From positions 1,294 through 65,293 of the forward strand of contig JAGRNR010000014.1 of the NCBI GenBank assembly GCA_020440645.1: 64,000 nucleotides of DNA. The letters are read 5' to 3'. Source of the DNA: a bacterium. GTDB taxonomy: Bacteria; 4484-113; JAFGCY01. The position numbers and the translations under genes are program-made. Under the pieces are notes generated by a model. That model had not been told where the DNA came from. It saw nothing but the letters and a program-made list of their open reading frames with translations, and ran no database searches. Positions 32,923 to 62,708 of this stretch are shown here, piece by piece (the stretch's first letter is position 1; the number at the start of each line of letters is the position of its first letter).

Positions 32923-33927
32923 TCAGCCTGCGGCGAAGATCCGCTTGCGGCGCTCCAGCACGTCGTTGCAGGCATCGAGCACGCCCTTGACGTTCAGGCC
33001 CGCGAGGTCCATCAGCTCATACGGGTCGCCGCTGGAGAGGTACATGTCGCGCACCGCCACCAGGCGCACCGGCACGAGGTTCTCGCCCTCCGCCATCACC
33101 GTCGCCACCGTGCTGCCCATGCTGCCGTAGTAGCTGACTTCCTCGGCCACCACGATGCCGCCGGTCTCGCCCGCCGCCGCTGCAATCGCTTCGCGGTCGA
33201 TCGGCTTGACGCTGCTCATGTTGAGCACTCGCGCGGAAATGCCCTGCTCTGCCAGCTGCTCAGCAGCCAGGATGCAGCGTGAGAGCATCAGGCCATGCCC
33301 GATGATCGTGATGTCAGTGCCCTCGAGCACCTTGGTGGCCTTGCCGAAGTTGAAGGGCGTACCCTCACTGGAGATCAGCGGCACCTTCTCGCGGCCGATG
33401 CGGCTGTACATCGGGCCGTACCACTCCGCCATGAACTTGGTGCACTTGAGCGTCTCCCAGTAGTCCGTGGGGTAGATCAGCGCGGTGTTCACCAGCGGCT
33501 GGATGCAGGAGCAGTCCTCGGAGGACTGGTGCGTCGGGCCGTCCTTGCCGACGGAGATGCCGCCGTGCGCGGCGGTGATCTTCACGTTGCAGTAGGAGTA
33601 GTCCACCGTGTTGCGGATCTGGTCCCAGGAACGGCCGGCGAGGAACATCGAGTAGCTCGCGAGGTAGGGGATGAAGCCCTGCTTGGCGAGGCCCGCCGCC
33701 GTGTTGATCATGTCGTTCTCGCTGATGCCGCACTCGAAGAAGCGGCCGGGATAGCGGTCGCGGAAGAACTTCGTGTAGGTGGACTCCGCGAGGTCGGCGT
33801 CGAGCACAACGACCTTCTCGTTCGTCTCGCCGAGCGCCAGCAGCGCATCACCGAAGCCCTCGCGCGTGAGCTTGTCCTCCCAGGCGGAGCTGGGCTTGTA
33901 ACCGTTCAGATAGTTGAGTTGTGCCAT
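32923..33927 (-). CDS. Transketolase C-terminal subunit (split transketolase, Pyr-binding plus C-terminal domains)
   Basis: 334 aa. MAQLNYLNGYKPSSAWEDKLTREGFGDALLALGE…GISENDMINTAAGLA…HGGISVGKDGPTHQSSEDCSCIQPL matches transketolase family C-terminal section genes. Confidence 0.85.
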   Translation of the reverse strand: MAQLNYLNGYKPSSAWEDKLTREGFGDALLALGETNEKVVVLDADLAESTYTKFFRDRYPGRFFECGISENDMINTAAGLAKQGFIPYLASYSMFLAGRSWDQIRNTVDYSYCNVKITAAHGGISVGKDGPTHQSSEDCSCIQPLVNTALIYPTDYWETLKCTKFMAEWYGPMYSRIGREKVPLISSEGTPFNFGKATKVLEGTDITIIGHGLMLSRCILAAEQLAEQGISARVLNMSSVKPIDREAIAAAAGETGGIVVAEEVSYYGSMGSTVATVMAEGENLVPVRLVAVRDMYLSSGDPYELMDLAGLNVKGVLDACNDVLERRKRIFAAG

Positions 33928-34137: not shown

Positions 34138-35130
34138 TCAGTCCTTCAGCCGTGACTCAAGCCAGGCGTAGGCATGCTCCCGCATCTCGGGAGTGAACAC
34201 ATGTCCGCCTTCGTAGATCTTCAGTTCCACATCCTGCGCAGGGTAACTGGCCCTGATGTAATCAGCGAGCGCTTGTGCACCAAAGCTGTACTTGTCCTGC
34301 GTCGTTGCCGAGATCAGCGTAGAGCAATTGTCAAACAGGCCGACCACATCCCCGATATCACCCCAGCTGGCAATCCCTGGAATGGCAAACTCCATCTGGA
34401 TACCAATGTCCTTCTCAAGTGATGCCGCATAGGAAACACAGCGGCAGTTGGACACCGTTGCCTTGATGCGATTGTCAAATGCCGGATACCAGAGCGCCAT
34501 CTGCCCGCCATAGGAATGGCCGATGAAACCGATTCTGCCAGCATCAACTTCAGGAAGCGTGCTTAAGTAATCAATAGCCGCAGAAATATCGTGAACCACC
34601 TTTGCATTCAATGAGGATCCCTGAACCAGCCGGGCGGTGAACTCCCTGTACGCTGTGCCGCCTGTATTGCTGGTGTCATTGCGCTCTTCAAAACCAATCG
34701 CATCCGGCGCAATGACAACATATCCCCGCTCGGCAAGCTCCTTTGCATAGCACTGATCCGGGTCCCCTGCCAGGCCGACCACCTCACTCTTGCCAAGCTC
34801 AAAATTGCCGGCATGCTGGTGATGGGCGAATACTGCTGGCAGCCTTCCTTCAAGCTTCGGCAGCAGCAGATAGGTAGGAATCCGTTCGCCATCTTCCGAA
34901 GAGTATTCAACTTTCCGCTCTATATATGAACCCTTGTCTTCCTCAGCCAGGACAACTGGCTCGAGTGCTGCCTTGCCAGGGAATTCGCCGAGGAGCTTCA
35001 GGAGTTCTTGCTTCTTCATGGCCTGATTGTAGCCCAGCCGCTCAGACCCGTCCCGTACTGGATGTCCGTCGGCGATTGAGGATCTCGGATCTTGGTTGTT
35101 GGGAGTAGCAGATAGTGGTTCGATCTCCAT
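34138..35130 (-). CDS. Alpha/beta hydrolase (dienelactone-hydrolase-like)
   Basis: 330 aa (the start may be the internal MKKQELLKLL). Nucleophile elbow is GHSYGG. HHQHAGNFELGKSE follows the DLH-like pattern. Lies between the split transketolase genes. Confidence 0.6.
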   Translation of the reverse strand: MEIEPLSATPNNQDPRSSIADGHPVRDGSERLGYNQAMKKQELLKLLGEFPGKAALEPVVLAEEDKGSYIERKVEYSSEDGERIPTYLLLPKLEGRLPAVFAHHQHAGNFELGKSEVVGLAGDPDQCYAKELAERGYVVIAPDAIGFEERNDTSNTGGTAYREFTARLVQGSSLNAKVVHDISAAIDYLSTLPEVDAGRIGFIGHSYGGQMALWYPAFDNRIKATVSNCRCVSYAASLEKDIGIQMEFAIPGIASWGDIGDVVGLFDNCSTLISATTQDKYSFGAQALADYIRASYPAQDVELKIYEGGHVFTPEMREHAYAWLESRLKD

Positions 35131-35168: not shown

Positions 35169-36116
35169 TCACAGGCCGTATTGCCAGAAGGTCACCACAT
35201 TCCCCGCCGGGTCAGCCACGCTGAACCACTGCAGGTCTGCAGGCTCGCCCTGCAGCTCCTCCGGCTCAGCTCCGCTGGCAACGAGCCGTGCATGCTCGGC
35301 GGCGATGTCGAGGCATTCGAAGCACAGGCGCAGGGGTGCCGGATCACTGCCCTCCGGGTTGCCACCGCCCCACCAGCCGGCCCAGTCCATCAGGCCGACG
35401 AAGCGCCCCTCATCTGACAGCTTCAGGGCCTTGTAGACGCTGCCATGTTCCTGCACCACCCTGAATGCAAGGCGCTGCGTGTACCACTCCGTCGCCTCAT
35501 CAATGTTGCCAACGAACACCAGCGCTTCGCCCATGCCGTAGCGGCTGGATGCCGGAGCCTGTGCCGCATGCGCCTCCACGGCCTGCGTGGCAGCCACGTC
35601 ACTGCTGGCATCCTGCCAGATGATCAGTGGCTCGCCGTACTTATGCCTGATGCCGATGGTCTGCATCGACTCATCGCCCGTGATCTCCGTGCAGTCGTTG
35701 CCAAGTGCGATCAGCCGCGCGCGGTCCGTGGCCAGGTCCATGCTCTGGAAGCTCAGGTTGGCAGCCGGTGTCGGCCCGCCGGGTTCGAATCCCTCGGCCC
35801 ACTGTGCAGCGACGAGTGACATCTGGTAGGCATTGTCACAGCTGATGGATGCGTACTGGTCGCCGAATTCGAACATCACGGTCCAGCCCAGCCTGTCACG
35901 GTAAAAGTCCCGGCAGGCGGTCCAGTCCTCGGCGTAGCAAACCACCTCAGCGACCTGCAGGCGGTGGGCATCATTGCTCTTCTGTGCATCCATGGAAGCC
36001 TCCTGGGCGAAAGCGCATAGTGTAAATGACAACAGATAGCTGGCAGCGAAGGCCGTAAGGTATATGCAGGTCAGTCTATTCACAGCGGACTCCTGAATGC
36101 TCGATTGTTCCCCCAA
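35169..36116 (-). CDS. Secreted tandem VOC-family (glyoxalase/bleomycin-resistance/dioxygenase fold) protein
   Basis: 315 aa with signal peptide. Two repeats of the beta-alpha-beta-beta-beta VOC pattern (…CRDFYRDRLGWTVMFEFGDQYASIS… and …ATEWYTQRLAFRVVQEHGSVYKALKLSDE…). Confidence 0.55.
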   Translation of the reverse strand: MGEQSSIQESAVNRLTCIYLTAFAASYLLSFTLCAFAQEASMDAQKSNDAHRLQVAEVVCYAEDWTACRDFYRDRLGWTVMFEFGDQYASISCDNAYQMSLVAAQWAEGFEPGGPTPAANLSFQSMDLATDRARLIALGNDCTEITGDESMQTIGIRHKYGEPLIIWQDASSDVAATQAVEAHAAQAPASSRYGMGEALVFVGNIDEATEWYTQRLAFRVVQEHGSVYKALKLSDEGRFVGLMDWAGWWGGGNPEGSDPAPLRLCFECLDIAAEHARLVASGAEPEELQGEPADLQWFSVADPAGNVVTFWQYGL

Positions 36117-36552: not shown

Positions 36553-37641
36553 CTACTCCACCGGTGACATTTCCCGGAAGTGGTCCGGCTTGACCGCGTC
36601 AGGGTGCAGGGTGTTGTGGCGCTTCTCGGTGATCGTCAGGTCCGCCGGGCCGCCCGGGCCCTCGCTGTCCATGTGCACCACGCGTGCCCAGGGGCTGGCC
36701 TGGATCTGCTGCACCACGCCGTCGTAGACCGGCGCGCCGTACTCCGCGCGTACCTCGTCGAGGTTCTCGAATTCATAGCCGAGCGCCTTCAGGCAGGCAG
36801 TGGCCTCCGCATCGGTGCAGGCCTTGCCGTGCCACTTGAAGATGTCCTCGTACTCCGGCACGCCCTTCATCATCGTGGTGTGGAAGATCAGCGCCTTCGG
36901 GCTGCCCTCCTGCTTGCGGGCCCAGCTCCAGGCCGCGTTGATCGCGTCCAGGTCATGCCCGTCCACGTTCTGCACCAGCCAGTGGCAGGCCTCCAGCTTC
37001 CTGTCCAGCGGGTCGAGGCGCTTCACGTCCTTCACGCGGCCGTCGATCTGGATATCGTTGTAGTCGCAGCTCATCACCAGGTTGTCCGTGCCACGGTGCC
37101 CTGCGTGCATGATCGCTTCCCAGATCTGCCCTTCCTGCATCTCGCCGTCGCCGACGTTGCAGTAGACGAACTGCTCGCCCTTGCCCTCGAGCTTCTTCCC
37201 AAGCGCCATGCCATGCGCGACGCTGAGGCCCTGCCCAAGCGAGCCGGTGCCGATCTCAATGCCCGGTAGCTTGATATGGTTCGGATGGCCCTGCAGGCGG
37301 CTCGGGGTGGAGCGGAAGGTCAGAAGGTAGCCCGGGCTGAAGAAGCCGCGGCGTGACAGCAGGCTGTACTGCAGCGCGCTGACGTGGCCGTTTGAGATCA
37401 CGAACTTGTCGCGGTCCGGCCAGTAGGGCTCATGGGGGCGGATGCGCATGTGGTTGAACAGCAGCGCCGCGGTGTAGTCGGCCATGCTGAACGGCCCGCC
37501 GGTATGGCCGCTGTTGGCGGCATTGGTCATCATCACCGCGTCCTTACGCAGCGTGCGCGCGACCTCCCTGAGCTCATCGTTGCCCAGATTGAGCGTGTCG
37601 GCCTTAAGGCTGCGTTCGCGGATTTCGGCGTGTGAAAGCAC
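36553..37641 (-). CDS. Transketolase N-terminal subunit (TPP-binding domain)
   Basis: 362 aa. NAANSGHTGGPFSMADYTAALLF…GSLGQGLSVAHGMAL…CNVGDGEMQEGQIWEAIMHAGH…LVMSCDYNDIQIDG are the TPP-binding transketolase motifs. It has a C-terminal extension of about 80 aa. Confidence 0.85.
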   Translation of the reverse strand: MLSHAEIRERSLKADTLNLGNDELREVARTLRKDAVMMTNAANSGHTGGPFSMADYTAALLFNHMRIRPHEPYWPDRDKFVISNGHVSALQYSLLSRRGFFSPGYLLTFRSTPSRLQGHPNHIKLPGIEIGTGSLGQGLSVAHGMALGKKLEGKGEQFVYCNVGDGEMQEGQIWEAIMHAGHRGTDNLVMSCDYNDIQIDGRVKDVKRLDPLDRKLEACHWLVQNVDGHDLDAINAAWSWARKQEGSPKALIFHTTMMKGVPEYEDIFKWHGKACTDAEATACLKALGYEFENLDEVRAEYGAPVYDGVVQQIQASPWARVVHMDSEGPGGPADLTITEKRHNTLHPDAVKPDHFREMSPVE

Positions 37642-37782: not shown

Positions 37783-40668
37783 TCAGGGGCCGAAAAGTAG
37801 AAATGCCGACGATGTATCGCCCGCATATAGCTGTCCCAGGTCGTTGAGTGCCAGGCCATTGGCATAGGAGAACCCAAACCCGGTGTATTCCCAGAGCTTC
37901 GATCCAGCGGCACTGTAGGCATAAACCGTCTGGTCGTTGATCAGAAACAGCCTGTCTTGATTATCTATCAGGACAGTGCTGTAACCTCCACTTCCAAGAT
38001 CCTCTGACCACAGCAGGTTGCCCGCGGTATCAAGTGCTGTCAGGCTGCCGCCGAAGGGAGCGAAGTATGCGTTACCCGCGGAATCAAGGGATATCCTCAC
38101 ACTTGATGAGCTGGTCGTTCCTGTGTCATAACTCCAGTTGTCGAGTCCATCCGGCGAGATTCTATAGGCCACACCATCAATATCCGTAAAGAAAGTGTTT
38201 CCCGATCCATCGCAACTGACGCCGTTGCGCACCAAGCCGCTTCCAGCATCAAACATATCGACGAGGCTTCCATCCGCAGCAATGATATAGCGGATACCGA
38301 ATTGCGTCACGGCATGGATCCTAGCCGGACCAGTGGTCTCCTGCACCGCGCTGCTGCCATTGACAACATCGGAAAGCATGAAATCCCACCTGAAATCACC
38401 GGCAGGACTGATGCTGGTCAATACGCAATCGGCAGCCCCATTACGCAATACGTAGAGATTTCCGGCTGCATCCCTTGAAGGCGCACCCGTCAGGCGAGAA
38501 TTGAAGTTGTACTCCCAGACAAGTTCGCCTGCCGGATCATAACAAACCAGGCTATGCTCGGTGTTGAATGGGTTCTGCTCCAGCATGTGGACAATATCAC
38601 CATTGTCAAGAATCAGCGGGCTGCCCTTTGGCACGTACCCCGGCCAGTCCTTGCTCCAGCTCACGTTGCCAAAACGATCACAGGCCAGCACGACATCGTT
38701 CGTGGCTGTGTAGAAGCTGCTGTCAACGGCGAATGCTGGCGGGTTCCTGAAGTTTGCTGTCCTACCGATATCCCAGATTATCTCCCCGGCCTCATCCACA
38801 CGCTGCAGTCGATCCAGTCCCTGAGTGTAGAGGTTGTTGTTTTCATCGGTGGCCCCCCGGGCAGACATTACAACATCGGAATTGAGCCAGTTGCTGCCCA
38901 CAACATCCGGGATGGTACTCTTGATACCCTCAAAGGCACTGCTCCACCAAACTCTGCCGTTGTCCGCCACGAGAACCGGCACATGCACATCGCCTGGTGA
39001 TCCGAAACGCTGATGCAGACTACCGTCCTCACTGAATCCGACAACCACATCCCCCTCATCACCTGCAGTGCCAAACCAGATGTTGCCGTCTCCAGCTATT
39101 GTCAGTTTCGTATTCGGGAAGTCGTAGAACATTTGAGGAGGGAAATCATCCTTGTGTATCACGTTGGTCAGGTATGTCCAGTAGTCACTGCCATCACTGT
39201 GGAATGCGATGAGAAGCCAAGGGAAAGTCAGGTGATCTTCAGGCATGGACAAGACAATCGGCACATCATCCTTGCCATTCACCAGGCTGCCCGTGACCAT
39301 ACTGCTGATCCCGTCCACTATGCGGCGGCTCCACTGTTCAATGCCGGTGGAGTCAACTGCCACGAGGTCCATGTCATAAACTCCGCCACTTAAGGTCGTT
39401 TTGAGGAAATAGATGTTGCCGTTTCCGACAGTGGCACTGCTCACTACGCTGCTCTCTCCGCCACCTATTCTCCATTCTTCATTTCCAGACTCATCGATCA
39501 GCACCAATTCCCCGCTGCTGATGTCCAGCATGATGACATCATCCGCCATCGTGGCTTCAAAGTCCGCCAATTCAGCATCTACTGCCCTTTGCCAGAGGAC
39601 CTCGCCATTGCTGGAAATCCGGTAGAGCTGCCTTCCAGTCGTGTGCAGCACCATACTGTTGTCAGACAGCAAGGTAAACGAGGGCTCATGCAAAAGGCCG
39701 CCTGGGGATGAGTTTTTGCCATCCACCGCCGTACTCCACTGTATCTCTCCGTCCCTGCTAACACAGTTCACAAATCCATTGCTGCTTGTGCTGTAAAGTC
39801 TGCCATCACTACCCATCCCAAACTGGCCGAACTGGCTGAGCATCGAGCCGTGGAAAACAGCTTGCGGTGAATCTGGCGCAGCGATGTCGATCCGTGATCC
39901 GGCACTACCTCCTCCCCCGGGGCCGTTGAATTGCCCGGGACTGGGATCCGGTTCAATGGCAACAAGGTTCACGACATTGCTGTCAGCACCCAGATCACGT
40001 GCTGCACCGATGCCAGAAAACGGCTGAACCATGTAGTATCCGCTTGGCGCCTGCGGAATGTCGAGGGTGACCTCCTTCAGGCCTCCACCGGCGGGCGTGA
40101 CACCGGACGCAAATGAGATTTCCTGCAGTTCCGAAAAGTTAGCCTGATCAATCGCGTACTGCATTACATAGCCCGATATACTGTTGCCGAAATTGATTCC
40201 AATCGGCGTGATGTCGGCAATCGTAACCTGTCCATTGCCATCGCCGTCCGCCAGCCTGGCCTTTTCCCAGTCAGCATCGGAACTTGACTTGCCGAGGTGA
40301 ATGCCAACAGGCGTAATGTCAGCAACGTTCACTTCACCGTTCTGGTCATAGTCCCCATTGTTGCGCAGGCTCCATTTGAAGGTTGTGCCCGCCACGGACA
40401 AGTCGCTGACGGCTCCGGCTGCCCCGCCAGGCGCTGCGCTGACGTAACGAGTGATTCCCTGCTCATCCAGGACGCGCTGCAACTCCCGCAGCAGAAGCTC
40501 AGCGGTATCAGGGTCCATACCGGCCGGGGGACTGTACTCAGACAGCAACAAATGAGCAGTCGGTCCTACTGCAGGCAATGGTTCATTGATGGGATTGGAG
40601 CTGCGGTTGGAGCCGCAGGATGCCACCATAAGCAATGTAAGAACAAGCAATAATCCGAGACTGATCAT
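37783..40668 (-). CDS. Secreted lipoprotein: conserved N-terminal module, then a dockerin-type Ca-binding repeat pair, then a PQQ-like beta-propeller repeat region (paralog 1)
   Basis: ORF 37783..40818. Lipoprotein signal MISLGLLLVLTLLMVASCG starts at 40668, so the upstream 50 codons are probably non-coding because the hairpin repeat at 40761-40859 lies there. The dockerin pair is DYDQNGEVNVADITPVGI … DGDGNGQVTIADITPIGINFG. There are more than 10 repeats of the G-x-hydrophobic-W-x-x type (GEVLWQRAVD, GNEEWRIGGG, GIEQWSRRIV, GELVWEYNFN, NLLWSEDLGS, SKLWEYTGFG). Confidence 0.75.
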   Translation of the reverse strand: MISLGLLLVLTLLMVASCGSNRSSNPINEPLPAVGPTAHLLLSEYSPPAGMDPDTAELLLRELQRVLDEQGITRYVSAAPGGAAGAVSDLSVAGTTFKWSLRNNGDYDQNGEVNVADITPVGIHLGKSSSDADWEKARLADGDGNGQVTIADITPIGINFGNSISGYVMQYAIDQANFSELQEISFASGVTPAGGGLKEVTLDIPQAPSGYYMVQPFSGIGAARDLGADSNVVNLVAIEPDPSPGQFNGPGGGGSAGSRIDIAAPDSPQAVFHGSMLSQFGQFGMGSDGRLYSTSSNGFVNCVSRDGEIQWSTAVDGKNSSPGGLLHEPSFTLLSDNSMVLHTTGRQLYRISSNGEVLWQRAVDAELADFEATMADDVIMLDISSGELVLIDESGNEEWRIGGGESSVVSSATVGNGNIYFLKTTLSGGVYDMDLVAVDSTGIEQWSRRIVDGISSMVTGSLVNGKDDVPIVLSMPEDHLTFPWLLIAFHSDGSDYWTYLTNVIHKDDFPPQMFYDFPNTKLTIAGDGNIWFGTAGDEGDVVVGFSEDGSLHQRFGSPGDVHVPVLVADNGRVWWSSAFEGIKSTIPDVVGSNWLNSDVVMSARGATDENNNLYTQGLDRLQRVDEAGEIIWDIGRTANFRNPPAFAVDSSFYTATNDVVLACDRFGNVSWSKDWPGYVPKGSPLILDNGDIVHMLEQNPFNTEHSLVCYDPAGELVWEYNFNSRLTGAPSRDAAGNLYVLRNGAADCVLTSISPAGDFRWDFMLSDVVNGSSAVQETTGPARIHAVTQFGIRYIIAADGSLVDMFDAGSGLVRNGVSCDGSGNTFFTDIDGVAYRISPDGLDNWSYDTGTTSSSSVRISLDSAGNAYFAPFGGSLTALDTAGNLLWSEDLGSGGYSTVLIDNQDRLFLINDQTVYAYSAAGSKLWEYTGFGFSYANGLALNDLGQLYAGDTSSAFLLFGP

Positions 40669-40760
40669 AACAAATCCAGTCAGCAGTAGCTGTCGCAATG
40701 ATTGGATGCGAAGCAGTATTCTAGCCTTATACGCAAATCCCGTGGGAATGAAAGAGTATA

Positions 40761-40859
40761 GCTGAAAGCAGATAGCAGGGATCAGACTCGGCACTTCGAT
40801 CCTTCTGCGGCAGTTCACCTGTCCGAGTCTGCTCCCTGCTCGCTGCTTTCTGTTCTCTG
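40761..40859. repeat. Imperfect long hairpin built from (A)GCAGA oligomer repeats (family A)
   Basis: Left arm is GCTGAAAGCAGATAGCAGGGATCAGACTCGGC. Right arm is GTCCGAGTCTGCTCCCTGCTCGCTGCTTTCTGTTCTCTG, its reverse complement. The loop is about 30 nt. Confidence 0.7.
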
Positions 40860-42632
40860 TTACGGTGCATACACGGCCCAGACCAGCTTGGTCTGGGTCC
40901 GGACTTCCTCGCCATTGCCGGCTGACAGGCTGAACAGCTGCGCAAGGGCCGGTTGGCCATCAAGCAGCATGAAGCTGGTCAGGCCCGCCGGATAATCCGG
41001 CAGCACGCCATCGATCTGCCAGTCCGCAGGGTCATTGCCAGGCATTGCGCTGCTCCAGTGGCTCAGCACCATTAGCTGGCCATCGAGCGCAGTGGATGCC
41101 TGCGGACTGCCATGCAGGAAGTGCAGCTCAGCCCCGCTGCCCGCCAGGCCCAGCAGCGGGTCCTGCCCCAGCCCGAGCATGTCGTAACTGCTGTATTTCC
41201 AGGACTCGAACAGCTGCGGATCGCCATCGAGGAATTCAGCCGTCCAGAAGCGCAGGCTGCCATCCTGCGCCGGATGCCCGTCCACGCAAGCCAGCAGCGG
41301 ATGCCCGTTCAGTTCAGCGGTGTACATCGCCGAGTCCCGCCCTTCGCCGAGCGTCAGGTGGACCCAGTCGTCCGAGGTACTCGGGAATGACGAGATGCTG
41401 CTGGCAACGCGGAACTCCCGCAGGTCGTTGCCGAGATCAACGCAGTAGCCGAAGGCCGGGCCGCCATTGATGCTGATCGGCGGCGTCGTCCCGGATGTGC
41501 CGGGGATGTCCGGCAGGTCCAGGTAGACGTCGCACACTGCCCAGGACAGGTCATCGGGACTTGATTTGAATGCATACAGCAGGGTGTGGAAGTTGTCACT
41601 GGGAGAGCTGCTGACCTGCATTGTGATTGCCGGCCCGCTGTCCAGCCGGCCCAGCCGGGGGTTGACAAGCCTGGGTGCGCCCATGAAAGCCTCGTTGCTG
41701 AAGGTTTCGTGCGGGTCACCGGCATAGTGCCAGACGAGTGTGGGCACTGCTGGGTTGCCAAAGGGCACGACATTGATGATACCGAAGCCACCGTCGAAGT
41801 CCGCCATGTCCAGGCCCTCCGCACCGAAGAACTGCCCCTCAAGCGAAAGCAGCTCCCAGTCCGGCAGGGCGGCGCCGTTGGCAGTGTTGCTGATTGCCAG
41901 CCGCACGCTTTCAGCCCCGGCGGCATCCCGTGTGGCAAACACGATCGCCGGCCGGCCGCCTATGATGCGCGCCTGCAGCGCCAGTGCGCCGTCAAAGGCG
42001 CTGCCGACATCACTTGCCGATTCCAGCTCCACGAAGCGCCAGCCGCTGGCGGGCCGGGTTGCCAGCTCGAAGTGGTCAAGCACCGGCTGTCCGCCACCCG
42101 TCGCCACGATGAAGGCCAGCAGCACATTCCCTGCGGGAGTTGTATAGCTTGCGCTGTCCGGCCATTCCAGCGCATCCTGCGGATTATCCGCAGCGCGCCA
42201 TTCCCAGCGATTGTCAGCCGGAAGGCCGATGCCAATAAAGCAGGACCCGGCCGCCGGTGTTATGCCCCAGTCCATCACCAGCTCAAGCGGTCCGCTGTCA
42301 GCCAGCGGCACGCGGTACACGGCCCACGCGAAATGCTGCGGAGCTGCTTCGCCGGAAGCTGGCGGCAGGAATCGGATGCCCTCGCCGTCCGTTGCCAGGT
42401 TGCCCTGTGGCAGCTCCATGCCCAGCCGCGCCCCCGCGATGAAGCCCAGGCTGTCGGATGCCACGCGCTCGATCAGCACGCCGGGGGCCGGGAGGTCGGC
42501 CGGTGTACCCGGAGCGCTGGGAAGATCCGTTGGCAGCGATGCTGACTGCGCGCTCACGCGGCTGCAGGAACAGTTCACTGCACAGGCCAGCCAGCCTGCC
42601 AGCAGCAGGCACGAAAGGGAAAACGGACGCAT
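40860..42632 (-). CDS. Hypothetical secreted protein (~590 aa) located between the two dockerin-propeller paralogs
   Basis: ORF 40860..42692. GAGGA RBS sits before ATG at 42632 (MRPFSLSCLLLAGWLACAVNC signal). No motif recognised. Pro/Gly/Ala-rich, predicted beta-rich. Confidence 0.5.
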   Translation of the reverse strand: MRPFSLSCLLLAGWLACAVNCSCSRVSAQSASLPTDLPSAPGTPADLPAPGVLIERVASDSLGFIAGARLGMELPQGNLATDGEGIRFLPPASGEAAPQHFAWAVYRVPLADSGPLELVMDWGITPAAGSCFIGIGLPADNRWEWRAADNPQDALEWPDSASYTTPAGNVLLAFIVATGGGQPVLDHFELATRPASGWRFVELESASDVGSAFDGALALQARIIGGRPAIVFATRDAAGAESVRLAISNTANGAALPDWELLSLEGQFFGAEGLDMADFDGGFGIINVVPFGNPAVPTLVWHYAGDPHETFSNEAFMGAPRLVNPRLGRLDSGPAITMQVSSSPSDNFHTLLYAFKSSPDDLSWAVCDVYLDLPDIPGTSGTTPPISINGGPAFGYCVDLGNDLREFRVASSISSFPSTSDDWVHLTLGEGRDSAMYTAELNGHPLLACVDGHPAQDGSLRFWTAEFLDGDPQLFESWKYSSYDMLGLGQDPLLGLAGSGAELHFLHGSPQASTALDGQLMVLSHWSSAMPGNDPADWQIDGVLPDYPAGLTSFMLLDGQPALAQLFSLSAGNGEEVRTQTKLVWAVYAP

Positions 42633-42743
42633 GTTCGAATCCTCAATCGCAGAGTAAGAAATACTACGTCCTGCAACTCGCAAAGCAGGCATTGTGAAGA
42701 TTGATCATGCGAAATGGCTTTCCGATCACGGACTGCCTGCCCA

Positions 42744-45590
42744 CTACTGGATGTAGATCAGCGTGCCTTCCTTCTGCATCACGAACACCCGGCCATCCGG
42801 GTCAATTGCCGGGCGGCACTGCCAGGCCATGTCATTCGGCCAGCTCCACAGCTCATTGCCGGCACTGTCCAGGCATAAGGTGCGCCCGTTGCCGACCTCA
42901 CCCGCCGTCACCACCAGCGGGTCATTCGCATTGCCGAAGTAGATCCGCCCGGCGCTGTCCACGCAGACCGCCGAGAAGATCGGGGAGGGGTAGCTGAGCG
43001 CCCAGCGCTGCGAGCCGTCGTCATTCAGCGAGTACAGCTTCTTGTCCGTGCAGCCGAACACCACCCCGCCGTCCGCGCCGACCGCCAGTTCGCCGAATCC
43101 GAGCGATCCGGCCAGCGGGAAGCTCCATTTCAGGTTGCCATCCGGCTTCACCACCGTGATGTTACCCGCGTAGTCATCGAACACCGCGCTGCCGTCCGGC
43201 TGCACAGAGACCCCTGAGGTATCCAGGCTGAGCAGCGGGTCGGCCACGGCATAGCTCCACAGCAGGCTGCCCATGTCATCCAGCGCCACCAGACGGTCCC
43301 GCAGGCGGGCGTACAGCAGCGGCGGGTCGCTGCCAGTCCAGACAGCCATGTGCGTCGGGCCGGCGAAGGTGTAGAAGCGCGCCGGCAGGGCTGCCGTGGT
43401 CCACAGTTCCGTACCGTCGCCGCCGATGCAGCTGATGTAGTCGTCGAAGCCGTCACTCCAGCCGTAGTAGAGCAGGCCGTTGCCCATTGCCAGCTGCGTG
43501 CTGAACCGGCCCAGCGGGCGGCGGTACCACAGCAGCGTACCGTTGTCAGTGCAGCACAGCAGCGCCGGCCGGCCCTCATGCGTGCCGATGAAGGCGATGC
43601 GGTTGTCCGGCAGGATCCACGGGGTGGCGCTGTTGCTGGCGAAGGCCGGGTACACCGTGCCGAAGCTGCTGCCAACCGGCAGCACGGACAGCCCGCCGAA
43701 GCCGCTGACAACACGCCCGTCATCCGTGAAGCAGGGACTGCCGCTGGGCAGGCCGCTGCCGCCCGCGCCCCAGCGGAAGCTGCCATCTGGCGCAATGCTG
43801 AGCAGGCTGCCGTTGTAGTAGCCGTAGAAGTTGCCAAGCTGGTCAACTGCGGCCTCGAACAGGTTTCCGATGCCTGCGTATTCCCAGTCAGCCACAGCAG
43901 GCGGGACGAGGGAATGGATCACGGCGTCGCCGGTCTGCCAGGCCAGCCGTCCGTCGGCCCCGAGCGCAGTGCTGCCCTGTACCTGGTTGCCCTCCGCGGA
44001 GAATAGTTCCAGCCCGTTGCCATCGAACAGCCGCACATGGTCCGGGCTGTCGCCGAAGGTGCCGTAGCTGGCCTGGCCGAGGGCATTAACCTTGACCGTG
44101 CCGTTCAGGCTCTCCACCGGTCCTTCCCATGCCACGCCGCCAGCGGAGTTGAGCGCCACCAGCCTGTCCGCGCTCACGAGCAGCCGGCCGGCGCTGTCTG
44201 CGTTGAGGTAGCTGCTCACGTAGTAGTCATTAATGTCAATCGATGCCACGCCGGGGACCGTGTAGCTCCACAGGAAGCTGCCCGCGTCGTCAACCGCACT
44301 GACCCGCACATCGCTCGGCACCGGCAGCTGGTTGAGATAGGGCTGGCCGGTATAGCTCAGCACGCAGAATGCGCCGGGGATCGCGAAGCACAGGCCGAAG
44401 TCCCGCCCCGGCTCACTGTAGTTCCACAGCTCGCTGCCGGAGCTGTCCAGCCTGCGCAGCGTGGCCCCACCGCCTTCCACATACAGCGCGCCACCACCCG
44501 GCACCGGGCGGATGTCCCGCACCCTGGTCCCCAGGTTCAGGCGCCAGTCCTCGCTGCCACCCGTGATCTGCATGATGTCGCCGTTGCGCATGGCGGCCAG
44601 CACGGTGTTGTCAGCCCCCAGCCGGTGGATCGCCGGCCAGTCGCCGGTGTCGATCCCCCAGATGTGGATCAGGTCCGGCGTGAAGCATTCCGCCAGCCCG
44701 TCCATCCCGAGCGTGTAGATGTTGCCATCGCTGCCGACAAGCGGTGCGCTGAAGCGGTCGGTGAATGTCATCCCGCTCTGGTTCGTGAACACAGCCGGGC
44801 CGGCCACCGGGCTGTAGCCGGTGTTGCCGGAATCCGCCCCGCTGCCATTCCAGTTGCCGGGACTGATCGGCCCGCCGCTCGGCACCAGTTCATACACGTT
44901 TCCGGGAATGCCCAGTTCCCGGCTGCTGCCGTCCTGCTGGTAGGGCACGGCGCGGTAGAAGCCGGATGGTGCACCGGGCTGCTCTAGTTCGAAGTACTTC
45001 CGTCCGCCACCGGCCGGCAGCAGCGCCGCGGCAATCGGCAGCTCACTGCGCAGGCTCCAGCCCGCGCTGCCATCGCTGCTGTACTGCAGCTCATAACCGT
45101 CCACCCGGTTGCCGAAGTTGACACCGAGCGGGGTGATGTCCGCCAGCGTGATGAACTCGTTGCCATCGCCGTCCGCCAGCAGCGCCCGGAACCAGTCCGA
45201 ATCACTCGGGGTACGGTTGAGGAAGATCCCGATCGGGGTGATGTCGGAAACATTCACCTCGCCGTTCTGGTCATAGTCCGCCGGGTTGTTGAAGGTCCAG
45301 CGGAAGGTATTGCCATCGAGCGCGAGGTCATGCACCGCTGCATTGGAGGTCTGCGGTGGCGCACTGGCCATCCGTGTGATGCCCTGCTCCGCCAGCACCC
45401 GTGAAAGTTCCTTGAGCAGCTCATCCGCCAGCTGCGCATCGATCCCCGCAGGTGCCACATACTGCGACAGCAGCTGCTCCACCGGCACGGACTGCCCAGC
45501 CTGCGGTTCAGGCGACTGTCCGCGGCCACCGCAGCCGCCCAATAGTGCGGCCAGCAGGGCCGCTCCCCAAAGCTTCACGCTCCACTTCAT
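42744..45590 (-). CDS. Secreted lipoprotein: conserved N-terminal module, dockerin-type repeat pair, PQQ-like beta-propeller repeats (paralog 2)
   Basis: ORF 42744..45614. GAGGTG RBS sits before ATG 45590 (MKWSVKLWGAALLAALLGGCGG lipobox). The N-terminal module LLSQYVAPAGIDAQLADELLKELSRVLAEQGITR is shared with paralog 1. The dockerin pair is DYDQNGEVNVSDITPIGI … DGDGNEFITLADITPLGVNFG. PQQ-like W repeats include SELWNYSEPG, SFLWSYTVPG, GTLLWYRRPL, TELWTTAALP, SLLWSYAVAD, GNLKWSFPLA, SQRWALSYPS and NELWSWPNDM. Confidence 0.75.
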   Translation of the reverse strand: MKWSVKLWGAALLAALLGGCGGRGQSPEPQAGQSVPVEQLLSQYVAPAGIDAQLADELLKELSRVLAEQGITRMASAPPQTSNAAVHDLALDGNTFRWTFNNPADYDQNGEVNVSDITPIGIFLNRTPSDSDWFRALLADGDGNEFITLADITPLGVNFGNRVDGYELQYSSDGSAGWSLRSELPIAAALLPAGGGRKYFELEQPGAPSGFYRAVPYQQDGSSRELGIPGNVYELVPSGGPISPGNWNGSGADSGNTGYSPVAGPAVFTNQSGMTFTDRFSAPLVGSDGNIYTLGMDGLAECFTPDLIHIWGIDTGDWPAIHRLGADNTVLAAMRNGDIMQITGGSEDWRLNLGTRVRDIRPVPGGGALYVEGGGATLRRLDSSGSELWNYSEPGRDFGLCFAIPGAFCVLSYTGQPYLNQLPVPSDVRVSAVDDAGSFLWSYTVPGVASIDINDYYVSSYLNADSAGRLLVSADRLVALNSAGGVAWEGPVESLNGTVKVNALGQASYGTFGDSPDHVRLFDGNGLELFSAEGNQVQGSTALGADGRLAWQTGDAVIHSLVPPAVADWEYAGIGNLFEAAVDQLGNFYGYYNGSLLSIAPDGSFRWGAGGSGLPSGSPCFTDDGRVVSGFGGLSVLPVGSSFGTVYPAFASNSATPWILPDNRIAFIGTHEGRPALLCCTDNGTLLWYRRPLGRFSTQLAMGNGLLYYGWSDGFDDYISCIGGDGTELWTTAALPARFYTFAGPTHMAVWTGSDPPLLYARLRDRLVALDDMGSLLWSYAVADPLLSLDTSGVSVQPDGSAVFDDYAGNITVVKPDGNLKWSFPLAGSLGFGELAVGADGGVVFGCTDKKLYSLNDDGSQRWALSYPSPIFSAVCVDSAGRIYFGNANDPLVVTAGEVGNGRTLCLDSAGNELWSWPNDMAWQCRPAIDPDGRVFVMQKEGTLIYIQ

Positions 45591-47666: not shown

Positions 47667-47835
47667 TCCAGTCAGGCTTCCCGCTGAAATCAGCCCCGGC
47701 TGGCCTCCCGGCGGGCGATCTGAGCCCCAGTTTTCCGTTTTACGTATTCCGCAGCATCGGTTGGATTTAAGTTAAATGCCGGGTACAACCAACGGTTGCA
47801 GCTGCCTCCAGGCCCTGCGATCGAGGAGCCAAATA

Positions 47836-50800
47836 ATGCGTTTCAATCGGACCAAGATCTACCTTCTGATGTTGTTGCTGATGCCGGCTGTGCTGGCCTC
47901 CTGTGGCGCAGGTGGCGGTAGCGCGGTTTCATCCCTTGATGCAGCTTCCCAGCCGTCGGTTCCACTGCAGGGTAATGCCCCGCTGGCAGATGGCCTGCCA
48001 GCCCTGGACCAGCTGCCCGAGCCATCGCGCAGTGCGATGCTCAGCGGCCCGGGATACTTCCCGGTGCCGATCCTCGAGCAGGGCGTGATGCTGCAGCGCA
48101 GTGGTTCGGTCGTCTCCGGCCCGCAGGGCATCGAGCTGGATGGCAGCGCAGGTGAGGCCTGGGTGCTGTTCGGGGTCTATGGCTTCGACGGTGACAGCCA
48201 GCCGAACGCCGTAATGGCGGAGGCCACCGATGTGCAGGGCAGTTTCCATATCGGCGTCACGCACTACGCCAGCGGACGCTGGGAGTGGAGCGCGCCCTTC
48301 ACCGGCGATGAGGAGCATGAGTACGAGCACGTGGCCCAGTACACCGTGGCCGACCAGTATGTCAGCGAGCGTGGCTTCCACTACATCGCCGTGCTGGCGC
48401 CGGAGGGCTCGAGCCTGCTGCTCAGCGGCCTGCAGCTCGGGGTGGACGGCGGTGACAACGCACCCGTCGCGCCGGACTACTTCGAGATCAGCAATGGTGA
48501 CGCCGGCTTCCACTTCTGGTGGTACCCTAGCCCGGACCATGACGACCCGGACTTCGCCGGCTACACCATGCAGCGCGCCCTGTGGCCCGGCACCGACTTC
48601 CAGGACCTCGGCCCGCTCTCACACGAGACCTTCTACCATGACGCTGCAGCCGACCCGGCCCTGCTCTACCGCTACCGTGTACGCGTGGCGGATGTAAGTG
48701 GCAACTCCAGCTGGGGTTATTCCAACACCCCGGTCAGCGTCAGTGGCGACAACTACCCGGTGCCGGCGCTGGAGATGCCGGCCGGGCCGCTCTACGGCGG
48801 GCAGATGGTGACATTCGACCTCAGCGGCAGCTATGACCCCGACGGCGAACCGCTCACGGAATACACGGTCCAGTTTGACAACACGAACGGCATGGGCGGC
48901 GTCGGCCCGCTCACCAGCACCGACCCGCAGATCAGCGTGCTGCTGCAGCCCGGCTGCTACGTGGTGCAGGCCGCGGCCAAGTCCACCGTCTACTGCCAGC
49001 CGATCGTTGACACGCTGAAGATCTACCCGGCCTGGCAGCCTGAGCCGCAGCTGGTGGCCGAGCCCGGCAGCGGGCAGTGGCGCATGCAGTCCAGCCGCAG
49101 CATCTACTGGCCACAGGGCGACGCAATCGTCACATTCTTCAATGACTACCTCGGCCCCGGCCTCGGCGCGCTCGTGCAGCATGCCGACGGCAGCCGGGAG
49201 GTCCTGCAGCTGCCCTACTACCTGTACGACATCGACTGGATCTCCGAGCCGGTGGTCTGGCAGGGCCAGCCCTATGTCGGCGTCGTGTCTGACAACGTGA
49301 TGCTACTGGCGACCATCGGGGCGGACGGCCTGCAGTGGATTGAAGGCGGCCTCGGCTACACCGGCTTTGTGAACATCGATCTCGTGGTGGACGGCGAGGA
49401 CCAGCTGCGGGTCTGCACCCTGAATGAATACAACCCCGGGGACTTCGAGGTGCTCGCGATCAATGCCGGCAACCCGCTCGACATCTACACCCTCGAGTTC
49501 ATGTCCAATTCCGACGGTCCGTTTGACGTGGAGTGGAACCCGGAATACGGCGGCTTCGAGCTGATTTACACCACGGTCGGCAGCATCCACTGGAACCGCA
49601 CCGATGAGGAGGGTGGCCTGGTTGTCGACGACTTCGTCGGCGCGGGCATCTTCGATTCACTGGACATGGAACTCCATGCGGACGGCAGCCCCGGCGTGAT
49701 GGGCCGCTCCGGTGGGTCCTTCGTCTACTTCTCCTTTGACGAGGGCACCGCCAGCTGGTCAGCACCCGAAGTGATCGAGCCGATTGGCCTGAACGGCAAG
49801 TCCGGCGACCTGCTGTTCGATGGCAACGACATGGCAGCCTTCTTCGGCCTGGCGGTGGGCCAGTCATCGCTATACCGCCGCAACGGCGGCAGCTGGGACC
49901 CGCAGACCGTCAACTGGGCGCTGCTTTCCGGCCAGCACTGCGCCATCGCCCAGTGGCCCGACGGCCGCGTGAACATCATCGACGGCACGGTGGGCGGCGC
50001 GATCTTCATCTCCGACTTCAATGAGGATGGCAGCCACCCCGCCCCGATTGAGGTTCCCTCCGTTTCCTGGGACGGCATTGACTTGAATGCCGTCGCCGGG
50101 GCTGACGGCATCCACGCCGTCTGGCGTGGTGACAACGGTGCGATCCATTACATCGCCGACGACGACGGCACCAATTGGAACGCCTCCACCGGCTTCGTCA
50201 GCAGCGATGCACTTGAGCTGATGGCGGACGAGAACGGCAAGGTGTTCGTCGGCAACACCCACGGTGCGACCGCCGACCTGTTCAGCTGGTTCGGCGGCGC
50301 CTGGCTGATCGAGGGCAGCTCCAACCGCTGGGGCAGCAGCCTGCCTTACCTCGCCGCCCAGCGTGATGCCCCCGGCGGACAGTTCATCGTGCAGGATGAC
50401 CTGCCAGTGCCGCCAGCGCTCAGGCACATGCATGACGACGGCGGCGGCTTCCTCGTGTTTGACAGCTACGATTTCGACACGATCCGGATTGACGAGGGGG
50501 TGTCCCTCTTCACGGGCGCCGGGCTGATCAGCTTCGTGCGCGGCGATGAGATCCTCGGTTCCAGTGGGCTGGTCGGCTTCATCTCCGCTGACGACCACAG
50601 CTATGCCCACCAGATACACGACTACCTTTACACCAGCAGCGTTGACCTGACGCGCGGCCGCCGGATGGATGCCTGCAACTACCTGACAGGCCCGTCAAAC
50701 TCGCACAGCGCATTCTGGGTCAGCGGACTCGAGGGCGGCGCTCCCGGCGTGACGCGCTTCCAGGGCAAGGCCTACAACGGCAAGTACAACGTCGACAGCA

Positions 50801-60077: not shown

Positions 60078-62708
60078 CTAGAATCCGCCGAGGTTGTAGG
60101 CCTCATCCTGCACCGTCACAGTATTGCCATCCGTGTCAAATGTGAGCCCGTGCCAGCGCTGGTTGGCATTGGCAAGGCCGCCTTCCATTGCGTAGGTACC
60201 ACCGGCAGGTCCGGCAATAGTTATCTGAGTCACACGGATCACGTTCATGGACAGTACAGGTGCGTCCATCATGATGTGGTAAACGCCGGGGTGCACGACC
60301 GCCACGGTGACGACGATGCTTCCGGTGTGGGATTCATCATCGCCGTTGTACTGCGTACGGTCCTCCCACAGCGCAAACGGTTCAGCAGCCAGGCTGCCCG
60401 GGCTGTTGCGGCTGACCCAGGTCGTGCCCTGGTCCGTCGTCATTGCCAGGTAGGGCTTGTACTCGTAGCTGCGCGGGACCATGTTGCTCGCGAATCGTCC
60501 TTCCCACTCGATGGTGAAGCGCAGCTGGCCCTCGGGCAGCGGCTCCTCGCCCTGCAGCAGCCAGAAGGTGCCGGGCTCCTCCAGGTTGTTGGCAACCCAG
60601 ATCTGGACCTCCCGGTGGGTGTAGGGATGGTACTGCAGCGAGCGCGCCAGCACGACGAACTCGTTGGCCCCCTCCCGGAGCGGAACCGTCAGGCTGAAGT
60701 CGCCGCTCAGCGGCAGCTTGCCGCCCACCATCTCACGCCCCGGCAGGCGTGTGTTCCAGAAGTACAGCTCGTCAACCAGGTAGTAGCTGCTGTCAACATG
60801 CCCGCTGAGCGTGACCTGCTGCTCCTCCACCCGCTGCCCGGCGCTGAAGCCGTCAATGTTGACACTGGCCGTCTCATAGCCGCCGAAGGGTGGCTCAGCC
60901 GTGGCATCCAGCAGGATGTTCTCGAAGTCCTCCAGCATCGGGATCGAGCCGTCACCCATCAGGCGCAGGTGCTGCTCGTCCGTGCCGAAGTAGTAGTTGC
61001 GTGTGGTCTGCGGGTTCGCCGGGTCAAGCATCATCACGGTGTTGCCACTGTATGCATAGGCCAGGCAGAGGGTCGATGGCCCGGCGGCTGGTTTCAGCAG
61101 GCAGAGCACCGGCCCGCCGCTGCGGCGCATTGCCAGCTTCAGCTCCTCGAAGGCCCGCTGGTCGTCGCGGTCCGCATCACTGAGCGACCAGTTGTTGCCA
61201 AGCAGGTAGGAGGTGGTGGCGCGGGCGATGATCTTCTGCTGCACCTGCGGGTCCGGGAAGCGGCTGCCCAGCGGCCCCATGCTTTCCCGGTAGCTGTTGA
61301 AGTACCAGGCCTCAAAGGCCAGCCGGCCGATGGCCTCGACTTCCATCCAGGCGCAGTTGGGTGGCACGCTGAATGCATCCTGCAGCTGGCTGAAGCCTGT
61401 GCTGTAGCGCACCCGCTCGTTGGACCAGCGGTCGTTGGCATTTTCCTGCGCCAGCCAGACGATGCATTGCAGTGTGCCGCTGGGCTGCCAGTCCGGGGCG
61501 GCCGACGCCGTATGTACGTCGCTGCCGGGATAGGTCGCATACATCTCGAATTCAATCCAGCCGGCGGCATAGTCCGCCGCCGTCACGTTCAGCGGCACCA
61601 TCTGCCCATCCAGCCTTGCCAGCATCGGCTGCACCGCCACCTTGTCCTGCGCGTCGAACCAGGCGCGCACCGTGATTGGCAGTGCCAGGTTGACCGCCTC
61701 GGCACTGGAGATGTAGTAGAGGTCCCCGCCTAGATCCTCGCCATCGAGCTGAACATTGCCACTGGCGCTGCCCACGCTGAATTCCATCGCCGTTTCCAGA
61801 GCCCCTGCCGGGATGCTGATGGACAGCGGGCCAAAGCCCTTGTCCGGCCCGTTGATGCTGCCGCCGCCCGGCCCGATGATGATGGTCTCCGTGGCCGTGG
61901 TGCCACTGTGCTGCAGGATGGCCGGCCCGCAGTTCAGCATGCAGTCAGCAGCCAGACCCTCGCTTTCAGTGCGGTCAAACGGCCGCACCTGGTACCAGGC
62001 ATGTTCGCGGGTCTGCAGCTCGTACTGCAGTCGCTCTGTCAGCTGCACCGCCGGCAGCTCAAGCTCGCCGACCAGCTCCCAGGGCCCGGCTTCCCCCTGC
62101 GAGCCGTAGATCCGGTAGCCGGCCACCGTCGTGCCGTAGTTGATGCCGATCGGTGTCACGTCGGCGATGTTCACCTCGCCGTTTCCATCCCCATCCGCCC
62201 GGCAGGCCTGCAGCCAGCCTGGGTCGCCATACCGGTGCTGGTAGTGCAGCCCGATCGGGGTCAGGTCGGCGATGTTGACCTCGCTGTTGAGGTCATAGTC
62301 GCCACAGCTCAGGTAGCTCCAGCTCAGGAGCCAGCCTTCGCTGTCAGACCCGCTGAGCAGCAGGTCGTGGATCTCATTGCTGCTGCCCAGCGGGGCGCGC
62401 AGGGCACTGCGCCCTGCCAGCACGCGCAGCAATTCGCCGCGCAGTTCCTCAAACACCGCGTTGTCAACGCCTGCCGGAAGCGGGGCGGCCTCGATCTCCG
62501 CCTGGACGGAGGCGTCCGCCGGCACAGCCGGGGTGGTGCCTGCCGTTGTGCCCCCGGCGCAGGCCGCGAGCAGCATTGCCAGCAGGATCAATGTCAGTAA
62601 TGAAAGGGCTGGCGGGACAGGGGTCCCGCCATCACAGGGGCCGTCCGGCAGGGAAGCGGCATGCAGCCTTACCCTGTCCGGTGCAGTGCGGAAGTGTTGC
62701 ACAGACAT
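60078..62708 (-). CDS. Large secreted protein with a dockerin-type repeat pair (paralog 3 of the N-terminal module; different, non-PQQ C-terminal region)
   Basis: 876 aa. GGGAGG RBS sits before ATG 62708. The hydrophobic signal is LSLLTLILLAMLLAACAGG. The dockerin pair is DYDLNSEVNIADLTPIGLHY … DGDGNGEVNIADVTPIGINYG, preceded by the (L)R(G)ELLRVLAGR module. The C-terminal 600 aa are unassigned. Confidence 0.7.
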   Translation of the reverse strand: MSVQHFRTAPDRVRLHAASLPDGPCDGGTPVPPALSLLTLILLAMLLAACAGGTTAGTTPAVPADASVQAEIEAAPLPAGVDNAVFEELRGELLRVLAGRSALRAPLGSSNEIHDLLLSGSDSEGWLLSWSYLSCGDYDLNSEVNIADLTPIGLHYQHRYGDPGWLQACRADGDGNGEVNIADVTPIGINYGTTVAGYRIYGSQGEAGPWELVGELELPAVQLTERLQYELQTREHAWYQVRPFDRTESEGLAADCMLNCGPAILQHSGTTATETIIIGPGGGSINGPDKGFGPLSISIPAGALETAMEFSVGSASGNVQLDGEDLGGDLYYISSAEAVNLALPITVRAWFDAQDKVAVQPMLARLDGQMVPLNVTAADYAAGWIEFEMYATYPGSDVHTASAAPDWQPSGTLQCIVWLAQENANDRWSNERVRYSTGFSQLQDAFSVPPNCAWMEVEAIGRLAFEAWYFNSYRESMGPLGSRFPDPQVQQKIIARATTSYLLGNNWSLSDADRDDQRAFEELKLAMRRSGGPVLCLLKPAAGPSTLCLAYAYSGNTVMMLDPANPQTTRNYYFGTDEQHLRLMGDGSIPMLEDFENILLDATAEPPFGGYETASVNIDGFSAGQRVEEQQVTLSGHVDSSYYLVDELYFWNTRLPGREMVGGKLPLSGDFSLTVPLREGANEFVVLARSLQYHPYTHREVQIWVANNLEEPGTFWLLQGEEPLPEGQLRFTIEWEGRFASNMVPRSYEYKPYLAMTTDQGTTWVSRNSPGSLAAEPFALWEDRTQYNGDDESHTGSIVVTVAVVHPGVYHIMMDAPVLSMNVIRVTQITIAGPAGGTYAMEGGLANANQRWHGLTFDTDGNTVTVQDEAYNLGGF

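Follow-up and report, generated by a model that had tools for sequence, protein, structure and literature searches.

A predicted FN3-nested dockerin at the N-termini of a bacterial lipoprotein family, and its possible role in calcium-dependent docking

Three large predicted lipoproteins encoded in a 64,000-nucleotide stretch of bacterial DNA (contig JAGRNR010000014.1 of assembly GCA_020440645.1; hereafter “the window”) begin with the same module. In this report, we present evidence that this module contains a divergent dockerin, which is predicted to be inserted into a loop of an FN3-like domain (FN3::dockerin, or FN3::Doc). We refer to the three proteins and their minus-strand open reading frames (ORFs) as A, B and C; their coordinates are given in Table 1. 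In some paralogs, the FN3::Doc unit is preceded by a domain of predicted cohesin fold, an arrangement that we denote Coh-FN3::Doc. We consider it slightly better than an even bet (a probability of about 0.55) that the module is the membrane-proximal, Ca-dependent docking stalk of many lipoproteins, that its partners are the cohesins of the Coh-FN3::Doc paralogs, and that multi-lipoprotein assemblies result from their contacts.

The N-terminal module and its family

The original prediction, made from the nucleotide sequence of the window, held that it encodes three large secreted proteins having a signal or lipobox and a common N-terminus, and this proved accurate. The three ORFs are present, and the first ~260 residues of their products align at 35–47% identity. 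In each, a lipobox closes the signal peptide (VAS-C18 in A, LGG-C20 in B and LAA-C50 in C), and the column of its Cys is invariant in all 55 aligned family representatives; we thus predict that A, B and C are lipoproteins. The source organism is likely a diderm, because the window also holds TolC-like OEP, HlyD and AcrB genes.

Features that are invariant among the three proteins include a helical stretch (PAGxD...ELxRVL), a strand pair (DL...W) and two 12-residue loops. The loops carry the motifs DYDxNxEVNxxDxTPxG (loop 1) and DGDGN..ADxTPxGxN(F/Y)G (loop 2), with xTPxGx(H/N)(F/Y/L) after each. They begin 35 residues apart, and the second loop follows the first ...TPxGI at a distance of ~17 residues, in agreement with the spacing first proposed. 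When a hidden Markov model (HMM) of the module was run on all six-frame ORFs of the window, exactly three copies were detected, with E-values of 1e-77 to 1e-82 (7e-82 for A, 2e-77 for B and 8e-78 for C).

An AlphaFold2 model of residues 20–265 of B, built from a 25-sequence alignment, had a predicted local distance difference test score (pLDDT) of 86 and a predicted template modelling score (pTM) of 0.79. Along the chain, the model comprises two N-terminal helices, the beta strands ALD and FRWTF, loop 1 and a helix, a short helix (DWFRALL), loop 2 and a helix, and six further strands. The domain that hosts the loops in this model is FN3-like, i.e. a seven-strand sandwich that structurally matches FN3 domains, and the dockerin-like segment is predicted to occupy its B–C loop. 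This insertion had not been foreseen in the original prediction. The layout of the module is thus modelled as a helical hairpin after the lipobox Cys, followed by an FN3-like sandwich with two Ca loops and their helices between strands B and C.

No other part of the module comes close to the dockerin-like segment in conservation, and we therefore suggest that the segment is under functional constraint. Over 142 representatives, the frequency of the majority residue is 60–99% in this segment, and only 10–40% in the hairpin and the FN3 flanks. Conserved positions that are not Ca ligands are found in TP(I/L)G, (H/N)FG and W..A. The two repeats of the segment have 15 of 22 consensus positions in common; such similarity of repeats is also a trait of dual-binding type I dockerins.

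Beyond the module, the three proteins have different cargoes. As had been anticipated, two of them carry PQQ-like propellers: PQQ_2 (PF13360; gathering threshold 27.6 bits) is significant in A (E 7e-27, 95 bits) and B (E 6.5e-23, 82 bits), and it is unmatched in C. Protein A also matches Beta-prop_ACSF4 (2e-18). We considered whether A and B could be BamB, which is likewise a lipoprotein with a PQQ_2-type propeller. However, both proteins have ~950 residues, more than one propeller and the additional module, and the NCBIfam equivalog scores (47.4, 28.4 and 12.3 bits) are far below the cutoffs of TIGR03300 (285) and NF008351 (423); this identity was rejected. Neither Pfam nor NCBIfam gives a domain in protein C, and a PDB sequence search with its cargo gave zero matches. 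This type of cargo is nonetheless common to many family members, with 27–56% identity to P0043, P0046, P0065 and others (P numbers denote family representatives).

The module family is large. A profile search covering 1.84 billion protein cluster representatives yielded 2,462 clusters (at 50% identity) with E<=1e-3, of which 1,070 had E<=1e-30. The module almost always spans residues ~10–260 of proteins having 600–1,400 residues, and is also found internally, C-terminally or repeated in P0024, P0025, P0035, P0083 and P0099. Among 55 representatives, the cargo families were PQQ_2 (13), PKD (11), Beta-prop_ACSF4 (10), SBBP (6), Ig / fn3 (several), Peptidase_S8 (1) and polysaccharide deacetylase (1); many members have no known cargo domain. 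The proposal of a class of docked propeller proteins therefore describes A and B, but the cargoes of the family extend well beyond propellers.

Scanning a single genome from each GTDB species, we confirmed 173 stretches and kept 80 of them. These 80 all come from metagenome-assembled genomes (MAGs) with the titles “Planctomycetales bacterium”, “bacterium” or “UBP7”, and from one labelled Armatimonadia. The window is 95.8–98% identical to a complete 4.11-Mb chromosome, CP060262.1 (“HK-STAS-UBP7_A-1”), and 99.95% identical to one ENA contig. The examined loci of CP060262.1 contain at least 25 genes with the module; this count is a lower bound, as it draws on the 80 stretches kept out of 173. Family genes frequently stand in tandem, two to four at a time (loci L009, L048, L058, L071 and L078). 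Judged by these sequence comparisons, the family appears to be old, genome-wide and lineage-wide, and specific to the lineage of the MAGs labelled UBP7/UBP7_A. The local expansion of the family that had been proposed from the window is thus not borne out by the numbers of genes and clusters. Nor is it by A and B, which share only 28% identity over their full lengths and are therefore old paralogs, not products of a recent local duplication.

Relationship of the nested segment to dockerins

The strongest indication of kinship with dockerins comes from the family as a whole. We searched the PDB with a profile (A7) of 30 dockerin-like segments and 61 columns. The top matches were the type II X-dockerin of CipA (2b59_B, 3.2e-6) and a GH9 dockerin (4fl4_A, 4.1e-6); 5g5d_B, CelD (4cj0, 1clc), 3kcp, 2y3n_B, 2ccl_B and 1ohz_B were also matched at E <=3e-4. 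In all, nine dockerin-bearing chains had E-values from 3e-6 to 3e-4, and the best calmodulin had 6e-5. Family relatives also exceed the gathering threshold of Pfam Dockerin_1 (PF00404; 22.9 bits), namely P0011 and P0012 (30.5 bits each) and P0025 (32.5 bits); overall, 6 of 55 sampled representatives pass it, with a best E-value of 2.3e-11. In the sequences, the putative Ca ligands are D/N in positions 1, 3, 5 and 9 of the loop and Asp, rather than Glu, in position 12; loop 2 of A and B is an exception, with Thr in position 9. In the AlphaFold2 model, a helix comes after each Ca loop, giving two tandem repeats of loop and F-helix. Taken at the level of the family, the segment appears to be homologous to dockerins, i.e. 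a divergent but genuine dockerin.

A variant of this arrangement occurs outside the window. In P0011, P0012 and P0015, a third Ca loop and helix stand right after the second (e.g. FADYNGNLVVELSDLNPIG and GDCNCDGIVNASDLTPLG), forming a triple F-hand. These relatives are the best scorers against Pfam Dockerin_1.

Comparison with characterized proteins brings out what is ordinary and what is unusual in the module. Type I dockerins (PF00404; 1ohz_B, 2ccl_B, 4fl4_A) have the same two tandem F-hand repeats, each a 12-residue Ca loop and a helix, and their repeats are very alike, as are those of the module; the profile matches them at 1e-4 to 4e-6. However, cellulosomal type I dockerins are C-terminal, whereas this one is N-terminal, probably membrane-proximal and, in the model, nested inside FN3. 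Further, its loop is followed by an invariant T-P-(I/L/V)-G, and its carriers are predicted diderm lipoproteins with cargo that is not carbohydrate-active. The type II X-module–dockerin dyad of Clostridium thermocellum CipA (2b59_B, 3kcp) offers another parallel, in that a dockerin is structurally joined with an Ig/FN3-like module into a single unit, as is predicted here, and 2b59_B is the best PDB match of the family profile. In that dyad, the two modules are arranged in tandem, X first, whereas here the dockerin would sit in the B–C loop of the sandwich. Finally, EF-hand pairs such as those of calmodulin also feature paired 12-residue Ca loops ~36 residues apart. The module differs from them in having Asp instead of Glu at loop position 12 and an FN3 beta strand, not a helix, before the first loop, and the family profile prefers dockerins.

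Cohesin-fold domains and the docking proposal

Some members of the family have a beta domain of ~125 residues in place of the helical hairpin found in A, B and C. We predict that this domain adopts the cohesin beta-sandwich (jelly-roll) fold. A profile of eight such domains had 11 matches in the PDB at E<=10, of which eight were cohesins (best E 0.025). An AlphaFold2 model of P0014, built with an 8-sequence alignment, had a pLDDT of 85–92 over the candidate domain and a pTM of 0.68; one of five models was confident, and linker residues 157–164 had a pLDDT below 50. Scores against Pfam Cohesin (PF00963; gathering threshold 24.1 bits) were specific and all below the threshold, at 22.1 bits for P0083, 17.2 bits for a protein of CP060262.1 (locus L047) and 15.1 bits for P0025; P0014 and P0019 had no Pfam Cohesin match.

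In CP060262.1, the cohesin domain is present in seven of the at least 25 module genes, and all seven have a lipobox; roughly one paralog in four there thus has a cohesin-type N-terminus. The seven genes lie at 653260–655629, 842765–845353, 845461–848151, 970803–972479, 1346399–1349347, 1349390–1351423 and 1352452–1354467, and they include the orthologues of KDL29_07125 and KDL29_07130. The NCBI proteins KDL29_07125, KDL29_07130 and MCB1187990.1 also carry the domain (family HMM E 1e-38 to 1e-49), and these belong to the same MCB118xxxx accession series as A and C. The original prediction had implied a cohesin-bearing scaffold elsewhere in the genome. Cohesin-fold modules do appear to exist in the same genome, but none of those examined is on a multi-cohesin scaffold; each is fused to an FN3::Doc unit of its own on a paralogous lipoprotein. 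The genes that bear them cluster, with a run of three or four at 1.345–1.357 Mb of CP060262.1 and two at 0.843–0.848 Mb, and the cargo of tandem family members with cohesin is mostly PKD repeats.

Within the window itself, no scanned protein had a Pfam Cohesin match, two family cohesin HMMs run on all six-frame ORFs gave only noise, and tblastn for cohesin was negative. A homologous-protein search with the cohesin profile had no matches. Two neighbouring proteins had been nominated as cohesin candidates. One of them consists of eight CarboxypepD_reg repeats, and the other, the orphan secreted protein between A and B, matches neither Pfam Cohesin nor any family cohesin HMM.

We propose that, in these lipoproteins, a flexible tether after the lipidated Cys would lead to the helical hairpin and then to the FN3-like domain with its nested dockerin of two Ca-binding F-hand repeats. 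The FN3::Doc unit would serve as a membrane-proximal, Ca-dependent protein-docking stalk, and the C-terminal part would be variable cargo, which is PQQ-like propeller in A and B, is of unknown fold in C, and includes PKD, protease or further domains in other members. As likely partners of the dockerin, we propose the cohesin-fold modules that stand at the position of the hairpin in paralogs from that genome; cohesin–dockerin contacts would link lipoproteins into multi-protein envelope assemblies. Ca binding, cohesin–dockerin binding, action in trans and the cellular location are properties that we infer. A more ambitious version of the proposal, which we consider rather doubtful, is that the envelope harbors an all-lipoprotein cohesin–dockerin network, in which Coh-FN3::Doc proteins would join head-to-tail in trans and recruit ~18 or more hairpin-type FN3::Doc lipoproteins per genome.

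Several observations weigh against the docking proposal. The segments had been called a textbook dockerin pair, which is an overstatement; the family-level homology, the Ca ligands and the loop-helix topology are those of a dockerin, but the window copies fall short of the Dockerin_1 threshold, with A at 13.7 bits and B and C unmatched. Further, a single-sequence PDB search with a window segment places calmodulin EF-hand pairs first (E 1.7e-4), loop 2 of B has Glu in place of Gly at position 6, and a Foldseek search with the whole model returned no dockerin. On their own, the window sequences do not decide between a dockerin and an EF-hand pair. The arrangement of the cohesins is also a concern. 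A dockerin is present in cis in 36 of the 37 cohesin ORFs at dockerin-seeded loci. In four metagenome loci that were found with a 4-sequence cohesin alignment, all five cohesin domains are followed by an FN3::Doc unit ~20 residues on. By sequence, Coh-FN3::Doc appears to be a fixed unit, which is sometimes repeated within one chain (P0025, P0083). Because the cohesin nearly always has a dockerin in cis, it may be intramolecularly occupied, leaving no partner for the hairpin-type proteins A, B and C. Finally, no classical multi-cohesin scaffoldin was seen among the examined loci.

These cis arrangements could instead reflect an intrachain contact, with each dockerin packed against the hairpin or cohesin that precedes it. 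The unit would then be a rigid, Ca-stabilised stalk or a reciprocal homodimeriser, with no docking between different proteins. We think this unlikely, even though cohesin and hairpin share the same position, ~20 residues ahead of the FN3::Doc unit, and the pTM values of both B and P0014 are above the expectation for independent domains, which suggests fixed packing. There are also precedents, i.e. the type II X-module–dockerin dyads and, reportedly, an intramolecular clasp in the ScaA dockerin. The P0014 modelling, with its single confident model and its poorly scored linker, speaks against such packing. Moreover, the surface positions of the dockerin are highly conserved across paralogs with unrelated hairpins, which is better explained by a common external partner. 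Somewhat less probable again is a Ca-binding structural or envelope-binding module that has no protein partner and instead stabilises the stalk or binds lipopolysaccharide or another polysaccharide. The resemblance of the single window sequences to an EF-hand pair as well as to a dockerin would suit such a module, as would the constant membrane-proximal position of the unit. In addition, many non-cellulosomal dockerins have no identified partner, according to passages of PMC10066038 and PMC6461901 that cite Peer et al. 2009. Yet cohesin-fold domains co-occur with the unit in the same family and genomes, and its conservation extends beyond the Ca ligands to the TP(I/L)G, (H/N)FG and W..A positions.

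A further possibility is that the N-terminal unit is a sorting signal, read by a lineage-specific machinery for lipoprotein export or surface exposure. Its strict placement right after the lipobox of dozens of otherwise unrelated cargos would be consistent with this. However, sorting signals are not typically folded units of 200 residues with Ca sites, and in five proteins (the non-N-terminal and repeated cases listed above) the unit also occurs elsewhere in the chain; we regard this explanation as quite improbable. That the motifs are chance or low-complexity runs rich in D, N and G, with no shared ancestry, is favored by nothing but the sub-threshold Pfam scores. With 1,070 clusters at E<=1e-30, a confident fold and module HMM E-values <=1e-77, we dismiss it.

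Cohesin–dockerin pairs constitute the best-understood high-affinity protein assembly system of bacteria and are widely reused in synthetic biology, and their roles outside cellulosomes are mostly unknown. According to the same citations of Peer et al. 2009 (in PMC10066038 and PMC6461901), non-cellulosomal cohesin and dockerin modules as such are well known. They have figured in the “planctosome” proposal (PMC6461901) and have been assigned adhesin roles in Seep-SRB (PMC10553843). Other non-cellulosomal cases are represented by structures from A. fulgidus (2xdh) and from C. perfringens NagJ/NagH (2w1n, 2ozn, 2vo8). Our literature searches for “UBP7”/“UBP7_A” and for dockerin-lipoprotein systems returned no description of the module family. 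Nor did they return an account of an FN3-nested dockerin, an obligate Coh-FN3::Doc unit, lipoprotein anchoring or at least 25 copies per genome, and we know of no such case. What is known, then, is the existence of non-cellulosomal cohesin–dockerin systems; what appears to be new is the predicted topology of an N-terminal, FN3-nested dockerin on lipoproteins, together with the Coh-FN3::Doc unit.

In public records, A and B go under the name “PQQ-(binding-)like beta-propeller repeat protein”; A is an exact match of MCB1186719.1 (“PQQ-binding-like beta-propeller repeat protein”) and C of MCB1186729.1 (“hypothetical protein KDL29_06130”). The cohesin carriers are entered as “hypothetical protein” or “PKD domain-containing protein”. 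Since such records say “PQQ-like propeller” or “hypothetical”, the system is invisible to annotation. An uncultured lineage nevertheless devotes at least 25 genes per ~4-Mb genome to one dockerin variant. If the modules bind, the three window dockerins and the seven cohesins would provide defined, testable pairs, could show how diderms use cohesin–dockerin contacts to organise envelope lipoproteins, and might supply new orthogonal, Ca-dependent docking parts. Were the network version true as well, it would represent a membrane-anchored, non-cellulolytic analogue of the cellulosome with an undescribed dockerin topology.

Other features of the window

Table 1. Coordinates of the module-bearing genes, their dockerin-like segments and other features; positions are counted from the first letter of the window.
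Feature	Position	Strand	Description
Gene A	37783..40668	-	961 aa, ATG at 40668; predicted lipoprotein: N-terminal FN3::Doc module (predicted; FN3::Doc unit at residues ~85-235) and PQQ-like beta-propeller cargo (residues ~283-961)
Dockerin-like segment of A (residues 105-164)	40177..40356	-	DYDQNGEVNVAD-ITPVGIHLG ... DGDGNGQVTIAD-ITPIGINFG; segment HMM E 8e-34
Gene B	42744..45590	-	948-aa predicted lipoprotein; same N-terminal module as A (FN3::Doc unit at residues ~85-235) and PQQ-like propeller cargo
Dockerin-like segment of B (residues 104-163)	45102..45281	-	predicted between FN3 strands B and C
Gene C	60078..62708	-	876-aa predicted lipoprotein; same N-terminal module as A/B (FN3::Doc unit at residues ~115-267) and unannotated ~600-aa cargo
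Dockerin-like segment of C (residues 135-195)	62124..62306	-	DYDLNSEVNIAD-LTPIGLHY ... DGDGNGEVNIAD-VTPIGINYG; segment HMM E 1e-31
Orphan secreted protein	40860..42692	-	610 aa, between A and B; outside the module family
CarboxypepD_reg protein	26059-28335	-	758 aa; about eight CarboxypepD_reg (transthyretin-like) repeats, E 1.8e-49
STAND-type protein	29888-32839	-	NB-ARC/AAA_16 and TPR
Ankyrin-repeat protein	17205-18836	+	
Pentapeptide-repeat protein	19440-20519	-	

As originally described, A and B flank the orphan secreted protein, and C lies 15 kb away. The orphan has no Pfam, NCBIfam or PDB match, no match to the module or cohesin HMMs, and no exact counterpart in a collection of 15 billion proteins. 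Together with its upstream spacer (40860–42743), it forms a precise gene-sized indel that is absent from CP060262.1: the alignment to that chromosome reaches 42744 and resumes at 40859, and the B orthologue there is directly followed by the A orthologue. In JAGRNT01 (“UBP7 HKST-UBA03”, ~80% identity; locus L005), the B orthologue is directly followed by the transketolase gene, and both A and the orphan are missing. The junction between B and the transketolase gene looks like a hotspot of gain and loss. The GC content of the window is 62–65%, and that of the gene A stretch (37783–40818) is lower (57%); the GC content at third codon positions in gene A is below that of neighboring genes.

The plus strand at 47776–57903 encodes three tandem lipoprotein paralogs of ~1,083–1,089 residues (as called in ENA) with 34–39% mutual identity. 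They have no Pfam or NCBIfam match and no dockerin module. By eye, they seem to have FN3/PKD-like motifs ahead of a large region of repeats. We also considered these paralogs as cohesin carriers and rejected them, as neither Pfam Cohesin nor a family cohesin HMM matches. The region of the third paralog (54503–58089) is absent from CP060262.1, where the alignment jumps from 58090 to 54502; copy number therefore varies between near-identical genomes.

The transketolase encoded on the minus strand is split, with the N-terminal, TPP (thiamine pyrophosphate)-binding part at 36553–37641 and the C-terminal/pyrimidine-binding part at 32923–33927. Between the two halves lie two unrelated genes, one dienelactone-hydrolase-like (34138–35130) and one glyoxalase-like (35169–36116).

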